This document shows positions 1-40,634 of a stretch of DNA of 64,000 nt, piece by piece (positions within the stretch are counted from its first letter, which is position 1; each line of letters begins with the position of its first letter). The stretch is from an uncultured Lachnospiraceae bacterium (GTDB lineage Bacteria > Bacillota > Clostridia > Lachnospirales > Lachnospiraceae). Under the pieces are notes generated by a model. That model worked only from the letters and a program-made list of their open reading frames with translations. It made no database searches and was not told the DNA's origin. The translations under genes were made by a program, and so were the position numbers. Location of the stretch: NCBI GenBank assembly GCA_965645705.1, contig CBFFWQ010000011.1, positions 1-64,000 on the forward strand, given 5' to 3'.

Positions 1-608
1 CTTTTCAAAAATTTGTAGTTCGGATTGTAGTGGCTGGTTTGATTCTTGTGGTATTGGTTAAACTTTTATTAGATTGCTATAAATAGGACTGACCGATAAA
101 GCAAGGTTTTTCAAATTTTCTATTTGTTTAGAGCGTTATAAAAATAACACAAATCAATGGATAAAATGATGCCTATGTTAAGTAGATTCCTACCAAACCT
201 ACTCTAAAAGCTGGTTTCAGTTGAGCTAATGCATAAGGGATTGTTCTTCACTTTTAAAATTACTAAAGATAATGAAATTGTATTAATGGTCATAATAAAA
301 ATAATTATTGTTCTTACTGAAACTTTTTACTCTGTTGTTATACTCACGAGTGGTAAATTTTACAGCTAACCTAAAAGTATACCAACTATAACAAATGTCT
401 TGCTGACGAATCTAAAGGCTCGTGAGTATAAATTCTTTCTAAATTAATAATATGAGTTCTGTTTAGCAGAAAGAAGTATACTACAAAACTAGTCACCAAA
501 TCGAAAATACCTCAAGAGCAGAACTAAAGGCTTATGGATACTTAGCATGGAAAAGGTTTTCTATCTTTTTCATCATAAATCCGCAGCAAGTAGATTAAGA
601 ACAACAAT

Positions 609-629
609 AAAAGGACGTTGCCTTTTCAG
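609..629 (-). terminator. Conserved hairpin+U-tract repeat (minus-sense GAAAAGGCAACGTCCTTTT), copy 1 of 5, about 100 nt downstream of the MVP stop
   Basis: Stem AAAAGGAC/GTCTTTT around a 3-nt loop followed by a T-run in gene sense. The same 20-28-mer recurs at 3442, 4858, 5998 and 10451. Confidence 0.45.
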
Positions 630-736
630 TACAACGCCCCAATAATTACACCAACAAGCTCTATAGCTACAATGACCATGCCACCTAATAAATCTAAAGG
701 CTCGTGAATCCAATACACCAGAATCTAAAGGAACTC

Positions 737-3259
737 TTAATCCTCGTCAACAGAAGGAGCAACAATAGAAGGGAGCTTTTCAACAAACTCCTCTAAAGAA
801 GTTCCATGAAGCAAACGGGTAGTTACATCAACAACAGACTCACCACTATCCGCAGCTAAAGCATAAGGACTCATCGCCTCCGCCAAAGTCTTCAATAACT
901 CGGCATTCGAAGTAGCAGTCATAGAGGCAATAAGGTCAGGACTAATCGCTTTCATTACATCCCGAATTGCTTCTGTTACAGATTCCCGTTTAGATACTTC
1001 AAGTTCTTCTAAAGCTTCTTTATATGCAATCTCTGCATCCTCGGACTTCTTCTTCCTCTTTAATTCTGCTTCTTGAATAGCATCCAGCACAGGCTGCAAA
1101 TTTTTCTCGGTTTCCTTTGCAGTCCTTATAGCAGTTTCTTCTAAACGCTTGATAACTTCTTCTTTTGCAATCTTTGCGGTAGCCAATGCTTTCTCCAACT
1201 CAAGTTCATGCTGTTTGTTATCATATTCAAGTTCAGCTTCACGTTCTTCTGCCTTAATCATCTGTTCCAGAATTTCGACTTCACGCTCTTTACTCGACCA
1301 TTCCAGCTGCCTACGAACCATAGTATACTGATGTCTATCAATCATATTCTGAATACTGTCTTCGACATGAATGCTCAATACATCAACATCGTGAACAAAC
1401 ATACCATTCTCACTAAAAAGCATTCCTGCTTTTCCACTCTCCATGTTTGTTACAATACCAGACTCTGGAATACCTAAAGCCACCCTTCTCACAATATCAG
1501 AAGCATTCTGATAAAAATCCTGAATTGTGTGTTTCTTTACTTCTCTCTTTAATAAAGAACGCTGCCTATCGCACAGATACTTCACATAGTTTTCTACATC
1601 AAACCATTTACTCTTAAACCTTTCTAGAAAATCAACACAGTAAGATACTTTCACATCTACATTAACAAAATCTTTCGTTTGCACATGAATGATATCAGCA
1701 ATCTTATTATTAGCCACACGCAAATAAACTGTCTTAAATAATTCATCTGTAGTTTTTGGTTTCCCTGTTGACAGTTCTAAAACTTCTAATGTCTGATCAT
1801 ATTCAAGCAGACAAGTCTGCGGACCACACACTACTTTTCTAGTACCATCCTTAGAAATTAGATTCACAGCATATCCCGTGAAAATTTCAATGGAAACAAC
1901 ACCAGCATACTTATTATCAATAAGAATTGTACGTGGTTCGCTGTAGGTATTCCCACGTGAAAATCCAGATTCTTCTACGACTGCATTTACCTGACCGTAG
2001 AAACCATTATCTAAAGGCTGAGCACTAAAATCATTAAACCTTTCAAAGGAACTCTGCTTAACTCTATTAGCACTTTTCATACTATTTCCAAGACTTCTAT
2101 TATACTCTAAAGCTTTTTCATTACCAGGAAACCATAATCTACACTGTTTATCTGTAAGCTTCCTTTTTACAACGACCTCATTCCTTGGGTCAGGCAAATA
2201 CATCGCTGGTCCTTTCACCATCTTTACATTGCCATTCATTCTATCAAGCACATAACGCCCTTCTCCAGCAGGAATAGCGATTGCATGATGCAATACCTTA
2301 TCTTCATACTTAATAATAGAATGTTCTGCCCTTGGATAATAAATCATCTGATCCTTACCTGTAATAAAAAGTTCTTCCCCAGTCTTGTAGCTCTTACCAG
2401 TATGCTCATCCACATAATCAGCAATAACCTTTAAATAAATCCCACTAATCTCAGACAATTCGATTGCCTTAAACTTATAGCCGCCAGTAGCTGTATTTTT
2501 TACGAAAATCTCATCAGGCTCTGGAAATACAACCGCTGAACCATGAATATACTTCTTTTCACCTTGCTCATTTTTTAGAATACAGTACTCTAACCTTTCC
2601 AGAGTAACAGCGTCCCTTACATACTTGTCACCTTTCCCACCAATAGGAAGAACTTCAATGCCTGTCGGCGGGATATAAAAAGGAACTTCTGTGCCTTTAA
2701 TTACAAGAATCTGTCCTACAGTATAACTAGCAGGAACTACCTCCGTAACAGAAGAATCTAAAGGAATGTCATCCTCACTACTCTCGTCTGCAACACCCTG
2801 AGTTTTCGGCAAGCCGACATCTGCTAAAGCATCTGCATCATAAACACGAGCCAATAAATACTGATTGGAATGCAACCTGTGACCTTGAATTACCTTAGCC
2901 ATCTGCCCTGGATACAATGCAAAAGAAATATTTCCCTTGATATTTACTTTCTTTCCAACCTGTAATTTCGGTGTTGTGTTTGGAGAATTCGGTGCTGGAT
3001 AGGAGCCATCTACAGTAGGATTCTTTAATGCAACATACCAATTCTCTGGTACTGCAACAAAAGTTGTAATAGCCGTGTCGAAGTTTGCTTCCTCAAACTT
3101 CTTTGTTTCTTCATTAAATACAACTAAAGCATCGGAATTGGACAGGCTCATTTTGCTGGAACCTACGACGCAGGAAATTAAACCTTTTGTCTTATCCAGC
3201 ACATAAGCGTACTCATTAGGATTTAATACCAAATCCCTTTCCCTTTGTAAATCTGACAT
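737..3259 (-). CDS. Major vault protein (MVP) homolog, about 840 aa: N-terminal vault repeats, SPFH-like shoulder, long cap-helix coiled coil and cap-ring
   Basis: Translation aligns by eye along its whole length with eukaryotic MVP. FALYPGQ matches FPLYPGE, TGEELFITG matches TGEEWLVT, VVCGPQTCLLEYDQTLEVLELSTGKPK matches [27 protein letters not shown], and a roughly 150-aa E/A/K-rich coiled coil is followed by AISPDLIASM...LLKTLAEAM, matching AIGPSTIRDL...LLQSLGL. Start trimmed to ATG at 3259 (MSDLQ), preceded by AAAGGTGG 9 nt upstream. Confidence 0.8.
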   Translation of the reverse strand: MSDLQRERDLVLNPNEYAYVLDKTKGLISCVVGSSKMSLSNSDALVVFNEETKKFEEANFDTAITTFVAVPENWYVALKNPTVDGSYPAPNSPNTTPKLQVGKKVNIKGNISFALYPGQMAKVIQGHRLHSNQYLLARVYDADALADVGLPKTQGVADESSEDDIPLDSSVTEVVPASYTVGQILVIKGTEVPFYIPPTGIEVLPIGGKGDKYVRDAVTLERLEYCILKNEQGEKKYIHGSAVVFPEPDEIFVKNTATGGYKFKAIELSEISGIYLKVIADYVDEHTGKSYKTGEELFITGKDQMIYYPRAEHSIIKYEDKVLHHAIAIPAGEGRYVLDRMNGNVKMVKGPAMYLPDPRNEVVVKRKLTDKQCRLWFPGNEKALEYNRSLGNSMKSANRVKQSSFERFNDFSAQPLDNGFYGQVNAVVEESGFSRGNTYSEPRTILIDNKYAGVVSIEIFTGYAVNLISKDGTRKVVCGPQTCLLEYDQTLEVLELSTGKPKTTDELFKTVYLRVANNKIADIIHVQTKDFVNVDVKVSYCVDFLERFKSKWFDVENYVKYLCDRQRSLLKREVKKHTIQDFYQNASDIVRRVALGIPESGIVTNMESGKAGMLFSENGMFVHDVDVLSIHVEDSIQNMIDRHQYTMVRRQLEWSSKEREVEILEQMIKAEEREAELEYDNKQHELELEKALATAKIAKEEVIKRLEETAIRTAKETEKNLQPVLDAIQEAELKRKKKSEDAEIAYKEALEELEVSKRESVTEAIRDVMKAISPDLIASMTATSNAELLKTLAEAMSPYALAADSGESVVDVTTRLLHGTSLEEFVEKLPSIVAPSVDED

Positions 3260-3441
3260 AATAGTAACCACCTTTCTTAATGTTAATAGAATTAGAATTG
3301 TACGGAAAACACAAGAATACCGAACAAATCTAATCAAGTGAGTTTAAGTAAAGATAAGGGAACAATTAATCTTTACCAACTGTTGCGGAGTAACAATACT
3401 GCTCTAAAGGCTACCACTCACAGGCATTTATAGGCAACAGA

Positions 3442-3460
3442 AAAAGGACGCTGTCTTTTC
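3442..3460 (-). terminator. Conserved hairpin+U-tract repeat, copy 2 (AAAAGGACGCTGTCTTTTC), flanked by two TCTAAAG motif copies upstream of the MVP gene
   Basis: Same hairpin as 609-629. Gene-sense reading is GAAAAGACAGCGTCCTTTTT. Confidence 0.45.
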
Positions 3461-3573
3461 AGAACAATATCCTTGTTGATCTAAAGAATTATTAAAGTGA
3501 ATTAGAATACAAGAATCAATTATTACACAAACGATAGATAGTTCCAAAAGTCTTTCGTTATCACATACTATAT

Positions 3574-3936
3574 TTATTCCAATAAATCTTTATTTTTCAT
3601 AAACAATAATCGCAAAAGTTCCGTTTTACCAGTAGCAGAATCACCAATAATCCTTGTAATTTTTTTAATGCTTAAGTTAGAACTATCAATATTCTTCATA
3701 ATCAACTCCTCCATACCACATGCAGACCCCCACAGTTTTATCGCAGGTAATTCATATAATATAATTAAAGTTTTTACGCTACCACTTAATCGGTCTGAGG
3801 ATATAATTCCTAATACGGGGCTTTGAAACGCACCATTTCCAAGCACTTCCGTTTTATCAATTTCTTGTATCATTTGACACACAAACGGATCTTCAAACCA
3901 TTCGTGCCTGAGAACGGACATAAAATAAATCATCAA
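3574..3936 (-). CDS. Hypothetical protein with a Walker-A-like GDSATGKT near its C-terminus (possible truncated ATPase remnant)
   Basis: ORF only. The P-loop sits about 20 aa before the stop, which is atypical. Confidence 0.3.
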   Translation of the reverse strand: MMIYFMSVLRHEWFEDPFVCQMIQEIDKTEVLGNGAFQSPVLGIISSDRLSGSVKTLIILYELPAIKLWGSACGMEELIMKNIDSSNLSIKKITRIIGDSATGKTELLRLLFMKNKDLLE

Positions 3937-4290
3937 TATTTATATCTCGATTATTTACACTACCAACCTCTAATTTTAACATAAACCAACACCACTCCTA
4001 CAAAATAATTTTTATACATTAAGTATACTACTTCTAGCAATAAATTAATATTTAATGAAAAGAATGCTACCTTTTTAAGATAGTGTTCTTAATGTTCTAA
4101 AGGATTCAATAGAAATTGATTATGCTCACTAACTGTGAAATTTACCACTAATTAAAAAAACATATACCAACTACAACAAGTGATTTTCTGGCAAATCTAA
4201 AGGCTAATGGGTATAACGTGAGAAACAAAAATTTCCTGCTTCTTAAGAAAAGACTACAATATTATGTTACGTTGGAATTAATACCTTTCT

Positions 4291-4710
4291 TTAATTTTCT
4301 TTATAAATTATTTTTCTCATACCACTGCCACAGAAATCATGTGGTATCTTTTTGAAACCAAAAGTTTCGTAAAAAGATTCTTTTCCTTTTTCTGAAATAA
4401 GCTGGATACTTGACCTACCTCCGTCAGGCGTATGTTCTTCTACATAATCCAATAACATACTAATGATAGAAGTACCAATCTTTTGATTTTGAAAATCAGG
4501 GTGTACAATTACATCTACAATCATATAGTATTGTCCATCACCAAGCAGTCTACCCATAGCAATTGTTTTCTTATTTTCAACAACTGTGATTACATATAAA
4601 CTATTACTGATGGCAGTTTCTGCTTGTATTTTAGAAAAATTTTTCCAATTAACACTTTCTCTTAATCTATAATAATCTCCGTAAGATAAAATATTTTCTT
4701 TATACTCCAT
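4291..4710 (-). CDS. GNAT-family N-acetyltransferase
   Basis: VHPDFQNQKIGTSII matches the acetyl-CoA-binding motif A. Size 139 aa. AGAGGA SD 8 nt upstream of the ATG. Confidence 0.7.
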   Translation of the reverse strand: MEYKENILSYGDYYRLRESVNWKNFSKIQAETAISNSLYVITVVENKKTIAMGRLLGDGQYYMIVDVIVHPDFQNQKIGTSIISMLLDYVEEHTPDGGRSSIQLISEKGKESFYETFGFKKIPHDFCGSGMRKIIYKEN

Positions 4711-4857
4711 AAGAATTATCCTCTTATAAAATTAACAATAGTGTCTATGATTTTACTTTACTATGCCATATTGAAACACACTTATGTATGAAAAATAAAA
4801 TCCTTTTACATTTTAAGCTTAACCATAAATTAGCTTTACAAGAAATTTAATAACAAC

Positions 4858-4878
4858 AAAAGGATATTGTCTTTTCAG
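4858..4878 (-). terminator. Conserved hairpin+U-tract repeat, copy 3 (AAAAGGATATTGTCTTTTCAG)
   Basis: Sequence family match to 609 and 3442. Sits downstream of the Fic locus. Confidence 0.4.
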
Positions 4879-5050
4879 AATGACACCCTTAATGAACTAA
4901 ACTACTTGATCGATAAAATGACTAACTATTACACGAATGCATAGCTCTATATAAAGCTTCTAAACCAAAAAGCAAAAAAGGTGTGCAGTCTAAAATTTCA
5001 TTTTCAGAGTCAATGAAAGCTACATCATACCTTGCACGTTCTTTATCAAA

Positions 5051-5865
5051 TTAGGATGTGAAACTTACAGCTCTTATTTTATCCAAACCAGAATCAATTA
5101 AAAACTTATTCATAATCATTCTTCCAGTTCTACCATTACAATCAGAAAAAGGGTGTACATACTCAAAAGCAAAATGCAATAATAAAGCTTTCAACCATGC
5201 ATTCTCCGAAAAAATTGGCTTGTTGTAAAAATCAATAAAAGTTGTTATTGCAGCAGGAACCTGCTCAAATGGAATAGCCTCGTATTCACCAATATAAACA
5301 GGAGCTGTTCTCCATTTTTTACCCATAAGCCATCGCAAACACCATTTGCAAGAATTCGCCATAATTCTAAGAGAATTTCCTCATTAAATTTTCCAGTATA
5401 TAAGTTTAAATATTTGACAGCATCAAACCCATTTTTTATCATTGTTTCACTATATTCATTATTTTTATCAATAGGAGCACCATTTCTAAGTACGTGCGTC
5501 CTAGCTAAAGTAGTTTTTGCACCCTCTATTTTCATTGTATAAAAAATTTCTTCTTCTATCTTTACTGAATGCTCAACTACTTTAAGCTTATCATACTCTT
5601 TCTGTACTAACTCCTCTAAAGAAGCTATCTGACTATTATACAAAAATTTTAATGTTGTTACACCCAATTGCAATCTAGTATCAAAAAGATTTTTCTTTTG
5701 CTTTTCTAATTCCTCTTGTGTGCTTAATAAGCTTGTATAGGATACCCACGGAAAGTCTACTTCATCATCAAAATAAAGTCCTTTAGGATGTGTAAAAATA
5801 CTTATAGTTTTTGTTTCATCAATAGGAGGAGTTTTAAAAGCAAAAAATTTTTTAGCATCCAACAT
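5051..5865 (-). pseudogene. Fic (filamentation induced by cAMP) family protein, split by a frameshift into 5245..5865 (N-terminal part) and 5051..5362 (C-terminal part carrying the Fic motif)
   Basis: HPFSDCNGRTGR is the canonical Fic motif HPFx(D/E)GNGRxxR. The two ORFs overlap by 118 nt in different frames. Confidence 0.55.
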
Positions 5866-5997
5866 TATTAATAATTCCTTTCATTCTAATTTTTAAATCC
5901 AAAACCAATGATACTATTCTATCATAACTATAATGTATACACAAGATAGAAATACAAGGATTTCAATTAAAATCATTTTCTATTTTATTAATAAAAA

Positions 5998-6025
5998 CAA
6001 AAGGACGCTGTCTTTTCAGAACAAC
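5998..6025 (-). terminator. Conserved hairpin+U-tract repeat, copy 4 (AAAAGGACGCTGTCTTTTCAGAACAACG)
   Basis: Sequence family match. A GACCTAAAGG motif copy lies immediately adjacent. Confidence 0.45.
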
Positions 6026-6060
6026 GTACTTGATGACCTAAAGGAATCAAATTAAAAATA

Positions 6061-6500
6061 CTACTCAGAATCAGAATCTGAAGAATCCTGTTTTTCTTCA
6101 GCACCATTACGAACATAATCTGGAACATGATAAAACCTCTGCTGTCTAGGCTTCGGCGGATGCTTCTTATGATAAACCTTATGACACTTACGTACAATAA
6201 TAATCACTAAGCTAAAGAGGATTGCATACAGAAATAAATGAATAATAACCATTCAAGAAATTCTGCAAAATTCTGCACTGTCTCAACTAAAGTATTACGC
6301 AATCTCTTTAAGAAAGTATCATTTGTCTTCGGTTTATCTTTATAGTGAGAAACCTCATTAATACTTATATTCAAATAGGAATAAGCAACATCTGCTTCTA
6401 TCATCATACGTGATTTTAGTTGCTCAATCTGAACCTGAACTTCTGTTAAGTAACTTTCTATTTGTAGCATTTCCTGCGTATTAAAAGACTTTTCAAGCAT
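6061..6500 (-). CDS. Hypothetical protein(s): two overlapping ORFs (6207..6500 and 6061..6252, the latter with a TM helix). May be one frameshifted gene.
   Basis: ORFs only. Confidence 0.2.
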
Positions 6501-6836
6501 TTTAACATATGCTTTTCTTTTGCTTAAAGAATTTCCATACGAACACCAGCGTCTTTATACTCTTGACTTACATTCTCTACGATGGACTCTTTACTTCTTA
6601 TGTCACCTAAAGAATTAATGAGAGTGTCATACTTTGTACTCGGAACTCTTACAGTTGCTGTATAATGTTGTTGCTTTTGAGATTCATCCATCACATAATC
6701 ATAGTGTCCTGCACCATCGCTATAATACTCTTACTCAACAAAACCACCTAAATCTTGCAGCAGACTCTTGAAAGAAGTTGCAGAAGTGTCAATGGAAACT
6801 TCGCACCTATAAATCAACATCTCTTTATCAATAATG

Positions 6837-7067
6837 TTATTTTGAGCAGAGGGAGAAATCTATGGAGGAGGTGAAGGACTTGGGTGAATCGTGAGAGGAA
6901 ACAGAGGAATCATAGGCGGAAGAAGAAAAACCTAAAGAATCCTCGTTGCCTGAACTAAAACCTTTATAACTGTCAGTACTGCTACCATCGTAAAAATTAT
7001 CACCACCAGTACAGCCAACGATAACCATACAAGAAACAAATAATCCAATGAAAAAAATCTTTTTCAT
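6837..7067 (-). CDS. Putative lipoprotein (signal peptide with a VGC lipobox, S/D-rich). Short and possibly truncated; no ORF follows over about 300 nt.
   Basis: MKKIFFIGLFVSCMVIVGC N-terminus. Confidence 0.3.
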   Translation of the reverse strand: MKKIFFIGLFVSCMVIVGCTGGDNFYDGSSTDSYKGFSSGNEDSLGFSSSAYDSSVSSHDSPKSFTSSIDFSLCSK

Positions 7068-7150
7068 AACGTACCTACCTAACTAAGAAATTATCTTCTA
7101 AGTACAACCACATAAAATTAAATGGTATCTCATCAAAATTGTCTAAGGTG

Positions 7151-7618
7151 CTAATTTATCAAATCACGAAGCTCAGTATAATAAACAGAATTTAACCAAA
7201 ATACAAAAATAGGATAAGGAACTCTGTAAATACCTTGTTCATCATCTGTTAGCACTATTTTTGTTTTCTTTTTACCTATAAGAATCTTTGTAAAGTAATC
7301 GTATTCTTGGAAAACATGAAAATGCGTAGCTGAAATCGACTTATCTGAAATACTCATCTCATACATAATCTGTCGCTTAAAATCAATAAGATCTACTTCA
7401 GCATCACCCTGCTCAGGCTTATGCAATTCTGTAATACAGTAATGTGCTTGTGCATCACAATAAGCACCCTTCAAAAAAGTCTCAATAAAACTTCCTAACA
7501 AAGCACCTGTTAAAACATCAGACAGAACTAAAGAAATACCACCAACATTTTTCAGATCCATCAATAAATCTTTAAGCAATCCCACAAAGGGTAATGGTGA
7601 AATCACTAAAACATTCAC
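7151..7618 (-). CDS. Hypothetical protein, 4-nt overlap with the upstream ORF (same operon)
   Basis: ORF only. Confidence 0.3.
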   Translation of the reverse strand: MNVLVISPLPFVGLLKDLLMDLKNVGGISLVLSDVLTGALLGSFIETFLKGAYCDAQAHYCITELHKPEQGDAEVDLIDFKRQIMYEMSISDKSISATHFHVFQEYDYFTKILIGKKKTKIVLTDDEQGIYRVPYPIFVFWLNSVYYTELRDLIN

Positions 7619-8088
7619 AAGTTTAAAAAAAAACTTGTAATATTTACAATTCTTTTTCCAGCTAAATACTCATTCCCTGAAAACCAATCCAATAATTCAT
7701 CACTATTTAGCATATTATTTATAGACTGAAAGCACACTAATCTACAATTGTATAATAATTTTAGAGCTGCTTTTACATCAGTAAAATTATACTTCCCAAC
7801 ATTTCGAGCATAATGACTAATAAGGTTATGTTCCAAAACTAAATTAAATATTTCCTGTTGTTCTTTTGAAATAGTCTTTAATGTTTTATTTAGGATATTT
7901 TGAATACTTTTTAAAGTTCTTGCACCTGAACACATTGCATCCCAGCCTGAATTATTATGCAAATGATACAAACATAAACATAAAATACAAATTGTAAATT
8001 CCGTGTCACGTACATTAGATGCAGGATTTCTAGTCTCATAAACTCGATTAGTATTTGATACAACATTTTCTTCAATACAAGAAGCCAA
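7615..8088 (-). CDS. Hypothetical protein
   Basis: ORF only. Confidence 0.3.
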   Translation of the reverse strand: MASCIEENVVSNTNRVYETRNPASNVRDTEFTICILCLCLYHLHNNSGWDAMCSGARTLKSIQNILNKTLKTISKEQQEIFNLVLEHNLISHYARNVGKYNFTDVKAALKLLYNCRLVCFQSINNMLNSDELLDWFSGNEYLAGKRIVNITSFFLNL

Positions 8089-8121
8089 ATACTCTTTTAA
8101 AGAGCTAAAACCGGAAAACTT

Positions 8122-8772
8122 TCAAGCATTCTCAATATACTCATTAAAATTTTCAACAGTGACATCTTCAGAATACTTTGATACACAGGCTACAAGATCT
8201 TCCACTAAAAACATAAATTTGTCATAATTACTTCTTTTACCAGTATAAACCAAATACTCTACAAAATTTAAAAAAGTAGCTCTTACATAAACAATTTGAG
8301 TGGCTATACCACGCCTACAAGCTGCGTGTATCATAATCTCCGAAGATCCAGTAAAAATTATTTTTACTGACGAAAAACTTCTACGTGCGGTATCTCCAAT
8401 ATTAGAAATAAAATTATCATATTTAGGCACATAAGTAATCTCATCTAATAAAATAAAATCATAAGAATTATTAGAAATGCTGCTTAATACATGATTGAGT
8501 AAATCATCAATATAATAATCATGTTCAATTGTTGCAAAGTTTATTGATAGTACTTTATAACCTCTTTGCAACAATTCTTCCTGTAACTGACCTAAAGCTA
8601 TTGTCTTTCCAATTTTGCGTGGTCCTAATAATGCACAAAACCTTGTTTCTGAACTTAAAGCAAAATCTAATAAGCTATAGTAGAACATTCTCTTAAAACT
8701 TTTAGATTCTGGCACAGATTCAATTGTGTTAACATTATTATCAAAAGCAAAAACCGTTTTAGCAATCGACAT
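8122..8772 (-). CDS. P-loop ATPase (Walker A LLGPRKIGKT). May form one broken AAA/DUF4143-type gene with the two downstream ORFs.
   Basis: Walker A motif near the N-terminus, Walker B-like ILLDEI. Confidence 0.45.
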   Translation of the reverse strand: MSIAKTVFAFDNNVNTIESVPESKSFKRMFYYSLLDFALSSETRFCALLGPRKIGKTIALGQLQEELLQRGYKVLSINFATIEHDYYIDDLLNHVLSSISNNSYDFILLDEITYVPKYDNFISNIGDTARRSFSSVKIIFTGSSEIMIHAACRRGIATQIVYVRATFLNFVEYLVYTGKRSNYDKFMFLVEDLVACVSKYSEDVTVENFNEYIENA

Positions 8773-10450: not shown

Positions 10451-10480
10451 AAAAAGACATTGCCTTCTCAGAACAACGCC
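10451..10480 (-). terminator. Conserved hairpin+U-tract repeat, copy 5 (AAAAAGACATTGCCTTCTCAGAACAACGCC)
   Basis: Sequence family match. Lies 3' of the ATCCTACTTGGCAAATCTAAAGGCTCATG element. Confidence 0.4.
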
Positions 10481-10574
10481 TTTGATACAAACGAACTATG
10501 AAATTTACCGTTAACTAAAAATAATATCCTGCTTGGCAAATCTAAAGGCTCATGTAATAACCTAATGTACCTGA

Positions 10575-11420: not shown

Positions 11421-12419
11421 TTAGTCTTTCTTCTTCTCTTTTTTCTCTTCTTCAATAACCTCATCGCCACTGACCGTTATAACTGGATCTACTCCCTGCA
11501 TAACAATCCAACCATGCTCCATGCGAGCCTCAGCTTCTTTCATCTCAATCAAATTCTTATTAATACTTTCTGCAATCTTCTTGTTCGCCTTAGCTTCTGC
11601 TTCCGCCTCAATCAACTTTGCCTTTGCCTCTGCTTCTGCCTTAGCAATAATAACATCATTTTCATTTTGTTGTGTAACCAGTTTCTGCTCAGAAGAAAAC
11701 TTCTCATTGATAGATTCCTGAATCTTATCATCTTCGTACTGTAAACCGTCTTTCATTCCCAGTACAGTTATCGTAATTCCCTTGTCAGCAAAATACTTCT
11801 CTACATCTTCCCGCACTGTTTTCATAATCTTCTCTTTATCTGCAAGAATCTCATTCAGCGTTAGCTTTGCACACTGTTCTACAAACTTGCCCTCAACCCT
11901 TGCTCTAATCTCCGTATCCATAATTTCCTGCAAAGTCTTGTTATTGTAAGAATAAAGAAACTTTACAGCGTCGTCCTCTGTATAAATCTGAGCAGAGCAG
12001 TTCATACCAACAGAAAAACCAATATTCTCTTTCGACTCTGCATAAATTGCTTGATTCACTGTGGATGTACCAGAATCTTTCTGGCTATTCCATTCCCGTG
12101 TTTCTGGAGTACGCTCCACAATAATCAGCTTATGCGTTGGTCGCCACTCCCCTTGCCAGCCAAAGCGTCTTGTTTGTACCCAACGATGCGGAATTTGAAT
12201 CTCCTTGGTAGCAACTTTCGCTTCTGCAAGCAAAGCTTCAGATTCAAAAGAAGCCTGTTCTCCTGTGTCACCCAGCAATGGAATCAAAAACGCTGTTTGA
12301 CTTGCTTCAATCGTTACAAACTCTGGAGTGTCATAAGGACGAACAGAACCCGTTGTACTACTAGAAGAAACTATCAACAAACTTGCTAACAATAAACGCC
12401 TTACACTTGCACTTATCAT
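11421..12419 (-). CDS. SPFH/band-7 (flotillin/stomatin/HflK-like) protein with N-terminal signal/anchor and C-terminal AEAEAKAK coiled coil
   Basis: SPFH core plus EA-repeat C-terminus typical of YqiK/flotillin-like proteins. GGAGG SD 10 nt upstream. Confidence 0.7.
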   Translation of the reverse strand: MISASVRRLLLASLLIVSSSSTTGSVRPYDTPEFVTIEASQTAFLIPLLGDTGEQASFESEALLAEAKVATKEIQIPHRWVQTRRFGWQGEWRPTHKLIIVERTPETREWNSQKDSGTSTVNQAIYAESKENIGFSVGMNCSAQIYTEDDAVKFLYSYNNKTLQEIMDTEIRARVEGKFVEQCAKLTLNEILADKEKIMKTVREDVEKYFADKGITITVLGMKDGLQYEDDKIQESINEKFSSEQKLVTQQNENDVIIAKAEAEAKAKLIEAEAEAKANKKIAESINKNLIEMKEAEARMEHGWIVMQGVDPVITVSGDEVIEEEKKEKKKD

Positions 12420-16399: not shown

Positions 16400-16690
16400 C
16401 TTTTTACCACCTTTCTACTATCGAAAAATAAATGCACTTTTCCAAAATCAATAATTTATTTGCACATAAATTAAAAATACTTTTTTTATTGTTTTCACGC
16501 CGTTGATTTTAATTAAAAATTTTATGTTTTTTTCAAAAATTTTGTATTTTCTTCAAAAAAAAAAAGATTTCGTTATACTTACGAAATCTCCGAGTCACGA
16601 CACAAAGGTAAGAACCTAAGCACAAAACCCTATCATAAACAACAATACTGCAACTTACAAATGCACAGAATCTAAAAGTAATCAAGTCTG

Positions 16691-16888
16691 CTAATCAACA
16701 GACTTTTCACCTAAATGAGCTAAAGTATCATGCAATGTCTGCTGAGCATTAACTTCCTTCGTTTCTACTGTATCGAAAATAGAAAATACAAATACGCAAA
16801 CAAAAATAACGAAAATGATAAGAATATCTAAAACTACCTTACTGCTTTTGCTACTTTTTTTCATAATAATCACCTCTAATGCTTTCAA
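16691..16888 (-). CDS. Small single-TM membrane protein
   Basis: Begins MKKSSKSSK followed by a 25-aa hydrophobic helix. Confidence 0.25.
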   Translation of the reverse strand: MKALEVIIMKKSSKSSKVVLDILIIFVIFVCVFVFSIFDTVETKEVNAQQTLHDTLAHLGEKSVD

Positions 16889-17798
16889 AAATTACGGAAC
16901 TTTCTAGATTGTGTATTCACAGTATGCGTGAAGTTAGGAAATTCTTGCAAGAAAGAGAAATTGCAGATCTTTTCGTAATAAAAATGTAATATGATTTCAA
17001 AACTAAAGATATCGAAGAGAAAATCTGAACAGAGTCGGAAAAACATAAATACTACACACAATAGATTACTGATATGATAAAAGACATGATTTTAATCCAT
17101 AGGTGAGAATCTAAAGAGAGTCTTTATACAAAATAGGGTAAGAATCTAAAGCCTATAATATGGTTTTAATCATAATACTTTATTCTCTTCCTATACAAGA
17201 ATAGTAATTACTGCGAACTATCCGTTACCTAAAGTAAAGGTAATGGGCTTCTAAGAGGCTAACAACTCTATTTAAGAAGTTTGATATTTATGTTTACATC
17301 TGATAAGTCAGACAATCCTTATTCTCAGAGAAGTGTCCACTTCTCATCTACCGTATAATATGTAGTACTTTCCATGAAGGAAAAGTATCCCAAGCACAAC
17401 GCTACTTTTTCTTGTAAGCTGTATGACTATTTTTTACAGAAGGCTAACTGACATTTAAAATTTTACGTACTGTACGGCTAGACAGTACAAACACCCATTT
17501 TAACTTGCCAAAGTACAATAGAATGTGCTTATATTTGTATCACGCCATATAATTCTCAGAAAAATAAATTTTTTGTAATGCCATTCAAGCCATGATCTAA
17601 AGACATGGCTTTCTGACTGAAACTTTATAAAATTAAAGAAATAAAATTTCCTGAAAATAATAATGTAAAGAAATGTATATCAACGATAAGATTTAAAGAT
17701 GATACAGAATAAAACTTACTTTTCTTCAAAGACAGTTTTGGAGTAAAATAAATCTAAAGAAGGGCATTAATTCCATTGGCTCTATTAGAATTTGTAAA

Positions 17799-18002
17799 TT
17801 ATTGAGATTCCTCTGTTATTTCCATTAAAAGATTAAGGTTATATGGTTCTTTTCCTCTACCTATAATTAGCTCCTGATACTTTTGCTCATATAAATCCTC
17901 ATCAAATTGTGTAAAAGTTTCATCAGATGCAACATGGGACTGTCTTTCACAACAGGAAATAAAATCAGTACCAAGAAGACAAGAAAGCTCGTCTGCTTTC
18001 AT
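17799..18002 (-). pseudogene. Fragment of the retropepsin-like protein family (LLGTDFISCCERQSHVASD matches LLGADFISCCQWQCNIASD of the 34190 ORF)
   Basis: Local similarity to the C-terminal half of 34190..34774. Lies in an otherwise ORF-poor region. Confidence 0.35.
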
Positions 18003-18423
18003 TTCATAGTGCGGTCGTGCACATCACTTTATACTAAGCGGTTATGTTTTTCGACCGCTAGTATAGTAACATTAAATTTATGATTACTATCATCTATTTC
18101 GTAGATCAATTCTTTTAACATAGTAGCACTTAGAATCATACTAAATGAAACTGCTGTATCACTATTAGATATCACAGGTAAACTTGGAAACATTAAATCA
18201 CCAAGTTCAAACATAATTCGATATAAATTTCTCGTAGCTATGCCACTGAAGCCTGTAAAAGAAACATTTTTTACCAATTTAGCATTAAATTTTTCTAATA
18301 ATATCCTTTCATTTGCTGTCCAAACTGGGAAATAAGCTACAGTATCTAAAAGAACTCTTAGCCCATCTTATAATTTTATTACAGGACGTTGTTGCGTAGC
18401 ATCCAAATTTAATGTAAATTGCT

Positions 18424-18660
18424 TCATCCATGTACCCTCACCATACCTAATTGAAAGACATTATCTGGAGTAGTATACACAGCATCAACCTCTCCTTCGA
18501 TTGCCATTACTGTCAATTCATCTTTTGATTTTTCCGTGTACTTTACAACAGCAGATTCTACAGAAACTACATCATCATTTACATACCTCACATCAACCAA
18601 ACCTACCCACCTGTCAGGGTACTTTTCCTGAATTTGTTTCCATGTTAATCTTTCTTCCAT
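18424..18660 (-). CDS. Hypothetical small protein
   Basis: ORF only. Confidence 0.25.
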   Translation of the reverse strand: MEERLTWKQIQEKYPDRWVGLVDVRYVNDDVVSVESAVVKYTEKSKDELTVMAIEGEVDAVYTTPDNVFQLGMVRVHG

Positions 18661-19280
18661 AAATTACCTCCATTCTAAATAGTACGTTATCGGCTTCTCA
18701 TTCATTCTATCACAGTATTGTATTAAATTCCATAAAAAAATTACAAATTATTTTTGCTTTCAAAATGAAAAGAGAATCCAATACAATTAGCGTGTATGCC
18801 TTTTAATGACTAAATTTAAAATAGAGGAACGTTGACTATTACTTTTATGTAAAATTACAGTCTAAACTTCGGATACCTTTTGAATACAAGAAAAAGAATT
18901 ATTAAAGGTACTGTTAGCTACATCAAAATCATATTTCTTATAGCAATCCAATAAAAGTATAGCGTATTGCTAAATGCAAATTATATTATTTTCAATTTGT
19001 ATAATGCTGTTTAAATTTTTATTTGATTGCTATAAAAGCAATGAAAAACTGACCTAAAGAGCCAAGCAGAATATCGCAATCATCACTACTCATACACAAT
19101 TCACTATAATGAATTTTTAAATACTTTTCATTCTTATGATTTTATCTATCAACTTTTCTACATCTTTAGAGTCGATTTTTACCCACTGAGGTGCAGACTT
19201 AAAGGATTCCACTTGATGATTTTGTAAAAATACCATACACTGTTTTGCATTATGCTGAATCATCATTGCGTTTTTCCAAT

Positions 19281-19460
19281 ACCAGAACCACTGACTACTC
19301 CCACAGGCAAACTTGTGGTGTTCTCACTACCAAGCATAGTTCGTAATCGTACATCATTTTCAGACGTTGGAAGTACAAATATAAATCTATTTGAGTGAAA
19401 ACTTTTATTATCAAGCAGTCCAACGACCACATATTCAGAATAAACGCATAAACGGAAACA
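19281..19460. repeat. Direct repeat copy A (about 150 bp, roughly 85% identical to 20262-20420). Has a conserved small hairpin with a compensatory substitution.
   Basis: By-eye alignment. Hairpins are CCACAGG...CTTGTGG (A) and CCACAGG...CTGTGG (B). Confidence 0.6.
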
Positions 19461-19630
19461 ATTGCACAAAAAGACATTTTTGTTTATTTTACTAAAATTG
19501 AGTTAAAGTTTAACTATAACTTAAATTACAATATTCCCTACCATATTATCGCAGAAATTTCACGAAAATTACCAAAAAAATATGTAATAATATGCTTCTA
19601 TTTTCAGCAAACATTTTTCGCAAAAATGCC

Positions 19631-19660
19631 TTGACATGGGCGTTGGTAGCAAGGTATAAT
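19631..19660 (+). promoter_or_regulatory. Consensus sigma-A-type promoter (TTGACA, 18 nt, TATAAT) driving the plus-strand small ORF
   Basis: TTGACA at 19631-19636, TATAAT at 19655-19660, then AGGGAGG SD 8 nt before the ATG at 19691. Confidence 0.6.
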
Positions 19661-19690
19661 GAAAACAGTTAATGAAGGGAGGCGACAATT

Positions 19691-19900
19691 ATGAAATCAA
19701 AAAGTTTTATCGTTGGAATTGTACTATTTTTATTAGAAGTTATAGATATAATAATTTTAAATTCTATATGCTTAGAGATTGCCGCTGGAACGACAAGCTT
19801 ACTCACCATCCTTGCATCAATGCTTTTATGGATTCCTGCCTTTGTTTTTATATACATCTCGGCAGTATACCTTATAAGAAAATTATTCTGTAATTGCTAA
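19691..19900 (+). CDS. Small (69 aa) two-TM hydrophobic protein (holin-like or type-I-toxin-like)
   Basis: Strong promoter and SD. Two predicted TM helices. Bracketed by the direct repeats. Confidence 0.5.
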   Translation: MKSKSFIVGIVLFLLEVIDIIILNSICLEIAAGTTSLLTILASMLLWIPAFVFIYISAVYLIRKLFCNC

Positions 19901-20261
19901 GCCCTAATGAAATGTACTAGAGTGACTACTGCTTTAAAAAATAAAATTCATAAAACAGTAGTCACTTTTGCACGCACTCATTGTTGTGCATTCATTCTGT
20001 AACTAATCTTCTATTCTCTATTTTATATGATAGTGATTGCATAAAAGCTTCGTTACAAAACTAAAGAAATAAAATTCCCTATAAGCAATAGACTTAACAT
20101 CACTTGGTGTTAATGCCTACCTTACAAGGAAATAAATTATTCTGTTGTACCAGAAAATAATCTTTAATTTAAAAAGTTTTTCTTGCGATCTTGAATAACA
20201 GAATCTAAAGGTTTATAAAACTTCTCCAACCATCTACAACAGAAAACATTTTATTTATGAA

Positions 20262-20420
20262 TTGACCACTCCCACAGGCTAGTCTGTGGTGTTCTCACTA
20301 CAAAGCGTAGCTCGTAATCGTACATCATTTTCAAATTTTGAAAATACAAGTGTAAATCTATTTTGAATGAAAACTTTCATTACCAAGCAGTCCAATAACC
20401 ACATTAACAGTAACTTTCTG
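20262..20420. repeat. Direct repeat copy B (partner of 19281-19460)
   Basis: See copy A. Confidence 0.6.
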
Positions 20421-20614
20421 CCTTTCGACAAAGAAGTATAGTCAACCTCCATGAATATTTAAGCTGTTTTAGATTATGTGTTTATTCTAATTGTTAATTA
20501 AAAGTGGCTTTCGCCCAATACGCAAGCATGAGAGTTTTTCTCCACGAAATTATAATAACAACCAAAAAACTCAAACTTTCTGCAATACTCATAAATTTAC
20601 TTTGTAGCAATTCC

Positions 20615-21364
20615 TTAAAAGGCATTTACTCCATGAGCCTTGCCATCCTGACTATTCGCTACAGCTCTGGTATAAGATTTATAATTGTATCGTGTTACAA
20701 TAGACTCTATCTCTGCCAATGAAGACTCTAGTGCTAACTGCACAAATCTAGGCATAGCATTGTTAAGGAAACCTTGCTCTAATGCATTCCTTGCACTTTC
20801 TGTACAGTAAGATAAATTATAACCTAAAGAATCAATAGTTTCCAGCATTACTTCAAACATATTCATAGGCATAGTGATGTTTAACAAGCTAATCTTTTCT
20901 TGAATTAAAGACTTTAAGACTGGACGCACTTCACACAACCTGCTACGCATTTCTCTTACTTCCTCACTTGATGGAATTACTATAGTAACAGATTTTGCAA
21001 ATAATACTTGAGACACATACAAAACTGCAGCAGGTATTAAACCATTGCTACCATCACAATTGAAAGTAACATCACGCTGCAAAAAAGTGTCAAAATCTTC
21101 CGCTACAGGTGCTTTGTTCACAGCACGTTGAGCTCTCTTTGGCATCTGTTCTCGACCAAAATCATCGTCAGAATCAACTCCTACATCATCTAAAGTATGA
21201 TCCCAATACAACTGCTGAATCTCACACTTCTTCACTAATTCTACAAACTGAGCATACGATACGAAGAATGGATCAGCGTTATCCATAACACCGCCCTCTT
21301 TAATAAAGAAACCTACTACCTGACCGTCTTCTTTTACAGTTCCAACTTCATGATACCTTTTCAT
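20615..21364 (-). CDS. Hypothetical protein ending ...DGKAHGVNAF (VNAF-tail set)
   Basis: ORF with the shared C-terminal motif. Confidence 0.4.
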   Translation of the reverse strand: MKRYHEVGTVKEDGQVVGFFIKEGGVMDNADPFFVSYAQFVELVKKCEIQQLYWDHTLDDVGVDSDDDFGREQMPKRAQRAVNKAPVAEDFDTFLQRDVTFNCDGSNGLIPAAVLYVSQVLFAKSVTIVIPSSEEVREMRSRLCEVRPVLKSLIQEKISLLNITMPMNMFEVMLETIDSLGYNLSYCTESARNALEQGFLNNAMPRFVQLALESSLAEIESIVTRYNYKSYTRAVANSQDGKAHGVNAF

Positions 21365-32946: not shown

Positions 32947-33396
32947 TTAATCGTCTAACTTACAAACAAGAATCTCCACGCTTGTCTCTTGGAACACCTG
33001 CTGAATCTGCTCCGAAACCTTATCCCATGGCAGCTTATCCAAGCCAGCTCCAATAGTAGGCATTGCAATTTTCTTGATTCCATTCTCTTTACAAATACTT
33101 TTCATTTTCTGTAAAGCAAGTCTCATAGTAATAATACTTGGTTTTTCATAATACCGTTCTTTTGTAATTAAATTTAAAACCCTGCCTTCAAGGATACAAT
33201 CGCCACCAATACGACACCTATTATAATAACTATGATAATCTGGATACTTTTCCAACAGGCAGTTTTTCATATCAAACCTCTTGTTAAACTCTACAACGAT
33301 TCCCTTGCCCATACCAAAATCTGCACTGATGCAATGTGCCAAAAAATAATCTTCACTGACACTAAACAAGTTACACTTTCTTTCTTCGTACTGCAT
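32947..33396 (-). CDS. Macro-domain protein (ADP-ribose binding/hydrolase)
   Basis: HCISADFGMGKGIV and IAMPTIGAGLDKLPW match macro-domain signature regions. Confidence 0.7.
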   Translation of the reverse strand: MQYEERKCNLFSVSEDYFLAHCISADFGMGKGIVVEFNKRFDMKNCLLEKYPDYHSYYNRCRIGGDCILEGRVLNLITKERYYEKPSIITMRLALQKMKSICKENGIKKIAMPTIGAGLDKLPWDKVSEQIQQVFQETSVEILVCKLDD

Positions 33397-33400
33397 AACA

Positions 33401-38743: not shown

Positions 38744-38754
38744 CTTGATATCCC

Positions 38755-40619: not shown

Positions 40620-40634
40620 GTCACAATCACCTGC

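Follow-up and report, generated by a model that had tools for sequence, protein, structure and literature searches.

The window (the whole 64-kb stretch of DNA analysed here) encodes what is almost certainly a genuine and functional major vault protein (MVP) homolog. The product of 840 aa is read from an uninterrupted open reading frame at 737-3259 on the minus strand (ATG at 3259-3257, TAA at 739-737); the position given in a preliminary description of this DNA stands, and the strand is corrected to minus. Bacterial MVPs were described in 2013 (Daly 2013, PMC3762200) and 2019 (Sokolskyi 2019, bioRxiv 10.1101/872010), and gut-phage MVPs in 2023 (bioRxiv 10.1101/2023.11.10.566534). Since such proteins are already known and common, the finding adds one more protein to a family that is known yet still uncharacterised, and it repeats two preprints as well as automated annotation.

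The MVP gene and its maintenance

The first methionine of the product is invariant in a family alignment of 99 sequences, and a longer start (TTG at 3337) is possible. As had been described, an ordinary bacterial Shine-Dalgarno sequence precedes the ATG (Table 1). Purifying selection on the gene is strong (dN/dS of 0.09 against the sister strain), the DUF4349 and Fic genes adjoining it are broken, and exact MVP copies occur on dozens of contigs. A DUF4869 gene fragment lies inserted between a repeat-element copy and MVP and is missing there in the sister strain (comparison of the window with sister-strain sequence L141). In the short segment 3' of MVP that is kept in the sister strain, a hydrophobic mini-ORF of 17 codons ends and a weak hairpin (AAAAGG-CAACGT-CCTTTT) is found, a weak-terminator candidate that was not called by the terminator scan.

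Table 1. Features of the MVP locus and its flanks (window coordinates)
Feature	Position	Strand	Remarks
Full copy of the dispersed element, 3' of MVP	332..431	-	nhmmer E 7.6e-26; the inverted repeat is its closing stem
Third, degenerate core box 3' of MVP	524-540	-	same repeat family
Short segment 3' of MVP kept in sister strain	602..639	-	blastn 87% over 38 nt
Core-box-only copy directly after the MVP stop codon	681..709	-	TCACGAGCCTTTAGATT at 691-707
MVP-homolog CDS	737..3259	-	stop codon included; 94 kDa, pI 5.25, without membrane segment
Acidic C-terminal helical segment, counterpart of the cap-ring region	740..946	-	residues 772-840, pI 4.1
Cap helix (predicted)	947..1360	-	residues 634-771, ~138 aa; DSSP on model
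Shoulder (SPFH-like) domain	1358..1711	-	residues 517-634; Pfam PF11978
N-terminal beta-repeat body	1715..3259	-	residues 1-515; disordered loop 153-173
Helical and disordered insertion in the beta-repeat body	1895-2152	-	residues ~370-455
MVP Shine-Dalgarno sequence AAAGGTGG	3268..3275	-	8-nt spacer to ATG; read from sequence
Core box GCCTTTAGA, ~140 nt 5' of the MVP start codon	3403..3411	-	candidate shared promoter/operator motif
DUF4869 gene fragment	3574..3936	-	120 aa, profile positions 6-78 of 128; Pfam 1e-15
Full copy of the dispersed element (~95 nt), 5' of the DUF4869 fragment and MVP	4117..4217	-	nhmmer E 1.5e-22

Domain architecture and predicted fold

The product had been proposed to be collinear with MVP along its full length, and the beta-repeat body, the SPFH-like shoulder, a long cap helix and a C-terminal segment are all found. 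Overall identity to eukaryotic MVP (rat, human, rabbit; PDB 4V60, 9BW5, 9Z4W) is only ~17-20%. Rat and human MVPs are matched at 5e-20 by phmmer and at 1e-42 by a family profile, in an alignment that spans repeat R9 along with shoulder and cap helix and matches repeats R1 and R3-R7 weakly. The motifs quoted earlier are all present (FALYPGQ at residue 113, TGEE at 293, AISPDLIASM at 771 and LLKTLAEAM at 788) and align with the matching rat MVP segments. In the Pfam search proposed as a check by the preliminary description, MVP_shoulder (PF11978) is clear (78.3 bits for a cut-off of 25, with E 6.3e-22 and a match across profile positions 2-118 of 118), Vault_3 lies barely above its threshold (29.1 against 28.8 bits) and the 'Vault' repeat model falls below (16.3 against 27 bits).

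Monomer structure prediction, likewise proposed earlier, yields the beta-repeat body, an N-terminal array of vault beta-repeats. The AlphaFold model reaches a pLDDT of 82.3 with a diverse alignment of 99 sequences as input; 32 close homologs alone gave 50.6, with the repeat region unusable. A Foldseek search with this model retrieves full-length vault structures (4e-34 to 1e-26) and, with ~1e-16, the R1-R7 crystals. The shoulder is modelled at a pLDDT of ~95. The cap helix is predicted to be continuous (pLDDT 64-90) and aligns with rat MVP residues ~647-800; a long cap helix had been claimed correctly, and its length of ~150 residues is revised to that in Table 1, as compared with ~156 residues in eukaryotic MVP. 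The C-terminal segment is aligned by phmmer to rat residues 790-826, and the model places helices at 774-801, 809-816 and 823-832 with lower pLDDT.

Certain features set the protein apart from its eukaryotic counterparts. About 7-8 beta modules are suggested by the secondary structure of the model (rather than by coordinate-level parsing), in a register shifted by about one repeat relative to rat MVP, and as the slices used for internal-repeat comparison with hhalign partly overlap, the meaningful pairs are the non-overlapping ones. The repeat number is probably lower than the nine of metazoan MVP and, together with an insertion of ~85 residues before the last repeat, may give a geometry that differs from that of the eukaryotic vault. 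Furthermore, most residues of the NAD+/ADP-ribose pocket of human MVP (R504, K506, R507, P508, H509, R511, D521, F522 and W545; PMC12280208) differ: the K, P and K of the loop alone are kept, with the changes H509->D, R511->F, D521->N, F522->K and W545->V, a comparison that is approximate since it is based on a pairwise phmmer alignment. The G-K-P-K loop itself (STGKPKTTD at residue 497) is nearly invariant in the family.

Distribution and relatives of the family

Bacterial MVPs had been called rare, a view that does not hold: more than 6,600 relatives are found at E<=1e-3 in a 90%-clustered database, and at least 585 clusters at 50% identity (E<=1e-30). The accompanying statement that they are uncharacterised agrees with the literature search, in which no experimental report on a prokaryotic or phage MVP was found. 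JGI annotation already labels relatives 'major vault protein'.

The nearest relatives outside the species are encoded on viral contigs of jumbo-phage size. Those at 50-64% identity reside on IMG/VR contigs of 130-240 kb and on contigs of 147-151 kb binned into Firmicute MAGs; across the 40 IMG/VR MVP loci the contigs are mostly 130-470 kb, and full-length identity of the jumbo- and huge-phage proteins to the window MVP is 38-64% (~39% for the huge phages LR756500, LR756501 and LR756503). Among GTDB species representatives the best match has 57% identity. MVPs of (gliding) Bacteroidota, Myxococcota and Chloroflexota (Saprospira grandis, Microscilla, Flexibacter/Bernardetia) belong to a common clade with it at 41-46% full-length identity and are likewise uncharacterised; members are chromosomal in Bernardetia and Saprospira, and the family is also present in Cytophagales chromosomes. 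These bacterial genes lie on scaffolds or chromosomes of 4-6 Mb in free-living organisms, whereas the window MVP is carried by an AT-rich, ORFan-rich, Firmicute-associated replicon.

The MVPs of the human-gut Caudoviricetes ctOa11 and ct2Ri15 (Santos et al., bioRxiv 10.1101/2023.11.10.566534) come from a similar setting (gut, Firmicute-associated, ~810 aa), are closest to Lachnospiraceae and Clostridium sequences, likewise lack TEP1 and vPARP and may likewise stem from a prophage, a phage or the host. The window lineage differs in lacking a close IMG/VR relative (64% at best) and in its bacterial-type dnaX, pncB and yyaC. The Asgard archaeal homologs (PMC12962969) are also prokaryotic and possess cap helix, shoulder and repeats, with assembly modelled in silico alone; they have five repeats only, whereas the body of the window MVP is of about eukaryotic length.

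The gene neighbourhood is shared in part with the viral loci. DUF8224, a metallophosphatase and a nicotinamidase are neighbours common to the jumbo- and huge-phage loci and the window; homologs of the window's nicotinamidase and metallophosphatases lie near MVP in viral loci, and DUF8224 occurs both on a 171-kb viral contig and in the sister strain. Conserved neighbours of MVP, present at 13-17 of these 40 loci, are DUF2828-vWA, an RlaP-like nucleotidyltransferase, RNA ligases, an AAA_33 kinase, metallophosphatases and RNase T; the RNA-end-repair-like cluster (DUF2828-vWA, nucleotidyltransferase, ligases, kinase) that surrounds MVP in many of them is absent from this 64-kb window. DUF2828 was considered as a TROVE/Ro60-like module paralleling TEP1, for which no signal was obtained (phmmer and profile searches against PDB; Pfam at E<=1), a vWA-like C-terminus being the sole feature seen. 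The 2016 RNA-repair survey of Burroughs and Aravind is said to be relevant for SPFH and TROVE scaffolds.

The replicon carrying the gene

Two kinds of carrier come into question, a very large phage-like element and an ORFan-rich chromosome region of uncultured Clostridia related to Lachnospiraceae. According to the former, to which a probability just short of even is assigned, the window would belong to a huge phage or to an extrachromosomal element of phage-like kind in a Lachnospiraceae-type host, and MVP would be expressed in infection, its shell protecting phage processes or sequestering host factors. The extreme strand uniformity is in favour of this and against a chromosome: across the 64 kb, all but three of the ORFs that reach 120 aa share one strand, as do the genes of a further 10 kb. 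About half of the window ORFs have no Pfam or PHROG match; a lone tRNA-Asn and, next door, a 1,609-aa SNF2-like helicase with a run of ORFans add to the resemblance. So do the viral relatives of MVP and the neighbours shared with them, as well as NAD-salvage, Macro and ADP-ribosylglycohydrolase genes typical of counter-defence. DnaX, also in favour, forms an isolated branch in which identity falls from 91% to ~53%.

Nevertheless, no virion hallmark (capsid, terminase, portal or tail) was found in the window beyond one PHROG match labelled 'tail fiber', and its nucleotide searches against phage and plasmid records, like the tblastn search of MVP against plasmids, returned nothing. The clamp loader and a 439-aa ORFan have no close or viral relatives in IMG/VR. 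Bacterial equivalog cut-offs are passed by DnaX (502 against 400 bits), NAPRT (pncB; 660 against 469) and the spore protease YyaC (137 against 85); together with an ISAzo13 transposase and pseudogenes, these genes argue against a lytic-phage setting here. Contigs with exact window proteins reach 275-285 kb, and one cluster member is located on a 390-kb contig, which also counts against the phage reading.

The equivalog-level genes, IS elements, pseudogenes and long contigs favour an accessory, ORFan-rich chromosome region of a deep-branching Clostridia lineage related to Lachnospiraceae, in which MVP would be a cellular stress or defence cage, possibly acquired from a jumbo phage; this, too, is held at slightly less than an even chance. 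The named relatives of DnaX are Lachnospiraceae-type, the neighbours resemble a defence island (STAND/AAA_14 NTPases, Fic, a zeta-toxin-like kinase, GNAT, StiP/PRTase_2), and true chromosomal MVPs are available for comparison in Bernardetia and Saprospira. Apart from dnaX, pncB, yyaC and the one tRNA gene, however, no core gene is recognised in ~74 kb, and the viral position of the nearest MVP relatives, with 57% as the best match among species representatives, also counts against a chromosome. The 'Firmicute-like' bacterial context described previously is uncertain: the closest MVP relatives outside the species are viral and the window is ORFan-rich and one-stranded, and it also carries the bacterial-type dnaX, pncB and yyaC. 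A permissive Rfam scan of the ORF-poor region at 15-20.7 kb gave nothing beyond tRNA-Asn, and there was no support for explaining ORF-poor stretches by stop-codon recoding.

Flanking repeats and the proposed vault partners

The flanks of MVP had been reported to contain structured repeats, including an inverted repeat of 12 bp at 339-350 and 419-430. This inverted repeat exists and proves slightly longer, its 13-nt arms (338-350 and 419-431) being 100% complementary. The repeats are also present, though as members of a window-wide family rather than a speciality of the MVP flanks: the window holds four strong copies of the dispersed element and four that are weaker or fragmentary, and four copies are found in the sister strain, where the counterpart of the copy upstream of MVP lies ~380 nt ahead of its MVP (L141 9529-9622, by blastn correspondence). 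All copies are in gene orientation, and the following gene, where evident, mostly starts 50-130 nt (up to ~625 nt) downstream, with dnaX, PRTase_2, a radical-SAM gene and a metallophosphatase among these genes. The core box occurs at 10 sites in the window (0.16 expected by chance), and GCCTTTAGA has 9 exact matches, all on the minus strand (0.39 expected). The element is promoter-like, and the box of which a copy lies upstream of MVP is common to about ten other genes of the replicon. YYAYGAGCCTTTAGATT is a box of the dispersed copies and a candidate promoter motif; a scan of IMG/VR for the 16-nt repeat box gave single chance matches only.

These repeats bear on the suggestion that the flanking spacers encode a dedicated, vault-RNA-like small RNA partner of MVP, which is very unlikely. 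The 104 nt at 333-436 of the minus strand do fold at -26.3 kcal/mol (z = -4.15), four copies retain the closing stem, one of its pairs being compensatory, and two to three element copies cluster directly 3' of MVP. The inverted repeat is, however, not an MVP-specific RNA, because it is the closing stem of an element found throughout the window ahead of many unrelated genes. The consensus fold is weak (-1.29 kcal/mol), the structure of the upstream spacer is ordinary (z = -0.66), the sequence 3' of MVP lacks conservation in the sister strain, and no Rfam family (vault RNA, Y RNA and tRNA-like included) is matched in window positions 1-4300 even at E<=1. Nor was any Rfam match to vault RNA or Y RNA obtained otherwise. 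As stated previously, no TEP1- or VPARP-like partner is apparent: no TEP1 (TROVE/NACHT/WD40) or PARP4 domains were found among the window ORFs scanned with Pfam. In contrast to the eukaryotic vault, TEP1, PARP4 and vault RNA were not found near this MVP.

Relation to SPFH cages, proposed assembly and role

SPFH cages (HflK/C, QmcA, flotillin, prohibitin, stomatin) resemble MVP in having an SPFH fold followed by a long helix, packed laterally into a closed dome; they are membrane-anchored at the N-terminus and lack the beta-repeat body, of which the window MVP carries ~515 residues ahead of its SPFH-like shoulder. An SPFH-cage-type protein is separately encoded in the window (Band_7, 11421-12419). 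The reading of the MVP product as nothing more than a generic SPFH/band-7 protein, equipped with a coiled coil but of superficial vault likeness, named by the preliminary description as the outcome that would speak against it and favoured by the two low Pfam vault scores, is already effectively refuted and merits next to no credence, as full-length MVPs are the top structural and sequence matches by at least 20 orders of magnitude (flotillin, PHB and HflK score merely 1e-7 to 1e-4 in Foldseek) and the product, with a maximal 19-residue hydropathy of 1.24, has no transmembrane segment and lacks the membrane anchor of classical SPFH proteins.

Vault shells form by self-assembly of MVP alone, driven by the cap helix (summarised in bioRxiv 10.1101/2023.11.10.566534). 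By analogy, shell assembly by the window MVP is plausible. The ORF encodes a functional, soluble member of the prokaryotic and phage MVP clade within the SPFH-superfamily cage proteins. Its shoulder domains and cap helices, packed laterally, would most likely drive self-assembly into a large homo-oligomeric cytoplasmic dome or barrel, as in eukaryotic MVP and other SPFH proteins, and the cage would enclose or scaffold cargo. This explanation as a whole, cage assembly included, is considered somewhat more probable than not. As for its role, a protective or sequestering compartment in phage-host conflict, rather than a housekeeping organelle, would be the most likely, because the family is concentrated in huge phages near RNA-end-repair and NAD enzymes and the window is rich in NAD/ADP-ribose and toxin-like conflict genes; this role is proposed tentatively and is in itself somewhat unlikely. 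Further still from assurance is the broader conjecture that the MVP clade of gut and rumen Firmicute huge phages builds a genuine vault-like organelle in bacteria, deployed in host conflict (for example, by sheltering RNA-repair or NAD/ADP-ribose chemistry or by sequestering defence factors).

Significance

The prokaryotic and phage MVP clade is large, well conserved and especially common on jumbo-phage-sized contigs, often beside RNA-end-repair and NAD-related genes, and the window adds to it a selectively maintained MVP on a Firmicute-associated replicon. To our knowledge, the function of the vault has been unknown for ~40 years. A vault-like organelle in bacteria, if true, would for the first time make vault function genetically tractable in a prokaryote. 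If such proteins form shells, they would provide compact, recombinantly accessible cages as well as a route to testing the purpose of vault-type compartments.

Identity and predicted structure of the MVP homolog

The 840-aa product is a major vault protein (MVP) homolog with the full MVP architecture; the full-length assignment of the preliminary description is thus borne out by domain models, sequence searches, a family profile and structure prediction. Pfam MVP_shoulder is matched at 6.3e-22 over the entire model, with Vault_3 slightly over the gathering threshold and Vault under it. In a phmmer search of all PDB sequences, major vault proteins were the only matches (5e-20), with residues 454-797 aligned to rat 457-826 and the repeat region aligning in weaker stretches, while a profile built from 99 diverse relatives raised the match to 1e-42 and extended it weakly to rat R1 and R3-R7. 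AlphaFold gave no usable model with a shallow alignment (pLDDT 51), whereas the model from a diverse alignment reached pLDDT 82.3 and pTM 0.60. Its best Foldseek counterparts in the PDB were the full-length vault chains of rabbit, human and rat (4e-34 to 1e-26), followed by murine R1-R7 crystal structures, which are devoid of the SPFH domain (about 1e-16, TMt 0.57), and flotillin, prohibitin, erlin, HflK/C and stomatin reached just 1e-7 to 1e-4. Since sequence and structure searches both favour MVPs and the R1-R7 crystals are matched, a generic SPFH protein devoid of repeat domains does not describe this product.

Secondary structure in the model and the alignment register suggest seven or eight beta modules, not nine. 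The motifs quoted in the preliminary description were located (FALYPGQ at residue 113, TGEE at 293, AISPDLIASM at 771, LLKTLAEAM at 788) and pair with the corresponding rat segments in HMMER alignments. Unlike membrane-anchored SPFH proteins, such as the Band_7 product of 11421-12419, the homolog (94 kDa, pI 5.25) has no hydrophobic segment and, judged by its sequence, is soluble. The shoulder of human MVP binds NAD+ and ADP-ribose (PMC12280208; bioRxiv 10.64898/2026.05.01.722283). The pairwise alignment showed that the G-K-P-K loop alone is retained (here STGKPKTTD, nearly invariant across the family); because most pocket residues differ, a conserved nucleotide pocket is not supported. A giant-virus "prohibitin domain-containing protein" (BFVD A0A3G5A4K1, Harvfovirus sp., 802 aa) could be aligned to the MVP model across about 885 columns (E 4e-12) and may be an MVP-like protein in Nucleocytoviricota.

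Coordinates of the predicted MVP domains and of genomic features in the window
Feature	Position	Strand	Basis or remark
Beta-rich body	residues 9-364		AlphaFold model
Helix and disordered insertion	residues ~370-455		AlphaFold model
Final beta module	residues 456-510		AlphaFold model
Alpha/beta shoulder	residues 518-632		AlphaFold model
Single continuous helix	residues 634-771		AlphaFold model
Three short helices	after residue 771		AlphaFold model
Broken DUF4349 and Fic genes	4848-7097	minus	compared with L141 (sister-strain locus) 6386-8630
ISAzo13-family DDE transposase	29112-30332	minus	Pfam DDE_Tnp_ISAZ013 3e-115; phrog_34518 6e-175
NAD/ADP-ribose/stress gene cluster	32947-44622	minus	30-40 kb from MVP
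DnaX (gamma/tau) gene	58408-59925	minus	NCBIfam equivalog cut-offs passed
Core box sites	425-409, 707-691, 4210-4194, 10555-10539, 15125-15109	minus	
Core box sites, further	30973-30957, 37186-37170, 42881-42865, 49783-49767, 53913-53897	minus	
Extended ~95-nt element copies	332-431, 4117-4217, 10464-10557, 42796-42888	minus	
Weaker element copy	60158-60251	minus	

Gene integrity and selection

The MVP gene runs without interruption on the minus strand from an ATG at 3259 to a TAA at 737-739, and has its own ribosome-binding site. Starting from the alternative TTG in frame at 3337 would lengthen the product by 26 residues; the ATG is preferred because AAAGGTGG precedes it with an 8-nt spacer and Met1 is invariant in the family alignment (99 sequences). 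Comparison with the sister strain gave 87.5% nucleotide and about 91% protein identity, with dN 0.039, dS 0.42 and dN/dS 0.09, showing that the gene is under purifying selection. The neighbouring DUF4349 gene (351 aa in the sister strain) is broken into pieces of 55, 97 and 63 aa, and the Fic gene (316 aa) into 206 and 103 aa; as several independent assemblies carry the same breaks, these are true pseudogenes, not artefacts of sequencing. Decay thus affects the neighbours, whereas MVP itself is kept intact. Dozens of contigs, from many samples, carry the gene in exact or near-exact form.

Directly after MVP lies a hydrophobic mini-ORF of 17 codons (MVIVAIELVGVIIGALY, 627-680, minus strand), followed by a weak hairpin (602-625); the 3' end of the mini-ORF is also conserved in the sister strain. 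Elsewhere, a radical-SAM/SPASM-type gene (35284-37099, minus strand) is covered by two overlapping ORFs (35284-36240 and 36014-37099), which may reflect a frameshift or another pseudogene.

Nature of the carrier replicon

The window (G+C 28-38%, with strong and uniform GC skew) carries all but three of its ORFs of at least 120 aa on the minus strand, and matches the start of NCBI contig CBFEGA010000001.1 (GCA_965617245.1, 275,626 nt) at 99.9% identity. A cellular chromosome and a huge phage or other mobile element are about equally probable carriers. The chromosome is favoured by DnaX, NAPRT and the spore protease YyaC, all over NCBIfam equivalog cut-offs, by the ISAzo13 transposase and the pseudogenes, and by the occurrence of exact window proteins on 275-285 kb contigs and of one cluster member on a 390-kb contig. 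Several features argue for the phage or mobile element: roughly every second one of the larger ORFs has no Pfam or PHROG match; in the next 10 kb, a 1,609-aa SNF2-like helicase is accompanied by eight genes without hits, all on the same strand; there is a single tRNA-Asn; DUF8224, metallophosphatases and nicotinamidase also occur at MVP loci on jumbo-phage contigs; and the closest MVP relatives are viral. DnaX points the same way, being 91% identical inside its own cluster and about 53% to all others, which are Lachnospiraceae-type; outside its own 90% cluster the closest relatives, of that type, are 51-54% identical, and its lineage is isolated, either fast-evolving or deep-branching. The window showed no virion hallmark gene, no stop-codon recoding and no nucleotide match to phage or plasmid records. 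To call the context purely bacterial is an overstatement, the nearest MVPs being viral.

The transposase sits among ORFan genes. A further stretch of about 4 kb (16415-20617) is almost devoid of ORFs above 80 aa, gave no Rfam match at E<=0.1 and contains a duplication of about 145 nt (19292-19432 and 20263-20404, 85-88% identity).

A dispersed intergenic element

All assemblies of this strain stop about 710-736 nt downstream of MVP. The sister strain continues past the break into an S24-like gene, DUF2201 (vWA-like), DUF8224 and DUF4869, and homology between the strains ends directly after the MVP stop codon. The inverted repeat reported in this flank is real and perfectly complementary, and one base longer than claimed (13 nt, 338-350/419-431); it is the closing stem of one copy (332-431) of a dispersed element, and this copy has no evident gene downstream. 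In the window the core box YYAYGAGCCTTTAGATT was counted at 10 sites, where 0.16 would be expected; every site is intergenic and in coding-strand orientation. A further copy of the 9-mer GCCTTTAGA precedes the MVP start by about 140 nt. Four copies of the box lengthen to an element of about 95 nt, ending GGTAAATTTYAC...AGTGAGTATAA. In the window, nhmmer detected four strong copies together with four weaker ones or fragments (one upstream of dnaX); the sister strain has four, of which one precedes its own MVP by about 380 nt. Where the following gene is evident, the box lies mostly 50-130 nt, and at some sites up to about 625 nt, upstream of the start codon.

The proposal of a small RNA partner of MVP is not supported by these data: the element is dispersed, its consensus fold is weak, Rfam gave no match on the MVP flanks, and the spacer upstream of MVP showed no unusual structure. 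MVP shares its upstream box with about ten other genes. Downstream of MVP, the element and the point where the assemblies break coincide. The simplest reading is that of a replicon-wide promoter or leader, which also caused the assembly break; it probably serves a replicon-specific transcription factor or sigma factor.

Neighbouring genes and possible partners

Upstream of MVP lie a truncated DUF4869 gene, GNAT, the broken Fic and DUF4349 genes, two AAA_14/STAND NTPases, RibD_C and Band_7. The more distant NAD/ADP-ribose/stress cluster comprises a Macro domain, GyrI-like/Cass2, the radical-SAM/SPASM enzyme, nicotinate phosphoribosyltransferase (NAPRT), nicotinamidase, StiP+PELOTA, PRTase_2+TRSP (Ter-associated) and an ADP-ribosylglycohydrolase; several jumbo-phage contigs encode homologs of the nicotinamidase (47-50% identity) at a distance of about 6.5 kb from MVP. 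In line with the preliminary description, to which no TEP1/VPARP-like partner was obvious, no PARP, TROVE, NACHT or WD40 protein was found among the window ORFs scanned with Pfam.

Within about 8 kb of MVP, a conserved block recurs in 13-17 of 40 viral loci and on the phage-sized contigs L046-L048 and L077 (block loci include L018, L029, L041, L043, L046 and L047, from IMG/VR and phage-sized MAG contigs). DUF2828+DUF7788 (vWA-like) lies directly upstream and an RlaP-like nucleotidyltransferase directly downstream, accompanied by two RNA ligase families, an AAA_33 kinase, metallophosphatases and RNase T. The block, which is missing from the window, resembles an RNA-end-repair toolkit, and a literature search found no description of such an MVP neighbourhood. 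DUF2828 was considered as a TROVE-like module paralleling TEP1 and set aside, as no sequence signal was found.

Distribution of the family

The view that bacterial MVPs are rare does not survive: relatives at E<=1e-3 number in the thousands. A word-indexed search returned more than 6,600 of them among 8,000 candidates scored, each of the best 120 being close to full length, with an identity of 52% or more; some already bear the JGI label "major vault protein". Exhaustive search of 50%-identity representatives gave 1,207 clusters at E<=1e-3, of which 585 reach E<=1e-30, and exact-peptide seeds alone recovered 40 IMG/VR loci on contigs mostly of 130-240 kb, up to 470 kb. Furthermore, relatives at about 39% identity occur in three published huge-phage genomes (462-735 kb). 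In GTDB species representatives the relatives span Cytophagales, Saprospiraceae, Microscillaceae, Anaerolineae, Riflebacteria and CPR bins. A clearly chromosomal location applies to two of these relatives, in Bernardetia sp. OM2101 and Saprospira grandis, and others lie on contigs of 147-151 kb that were binned into MAGs of Lachnospiraceae, Oscillospiraceae and Eubacterium. Published relatives include bacterial MVP homologs (Daly et al., 2013, PMC3762200; Sokolskyi, 2019, bioRxiv 10.1101/872010), two MVPs from gut Caudoviricetes that have Firmicute affinities (Santos et al., 2023, bioRxiv 10.1101/2023.11.10.566534) and Asgard homologs (PMC12962969). The present homolog joins a known, experimentally unexplored kind of protein, as no experimental work on an MVP from a prokaryote or phage came up in the literature search.

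Proposed assembly and role

To our knowledge, all SPFH proteins of known structure form closed domes. Eukaryotic MVP self-assembles alone, driven by the cap helix (as summarised in bioRxiv 10.1101/2023.11.10.566534). On these two grounds, the homolog would most likely, at moderate confidence, form a large homo-oligomeric cage in the cytoplasm. From the distribution and neighbours of the family, such a cage would probably, at low confidence, be a compartment that sequesters or protects its contents when phage and host are in conflict. The more interesting lead is the family-level picture, in which MVP is widespread in huge phages and often lies next to RNA-repair-type genes.
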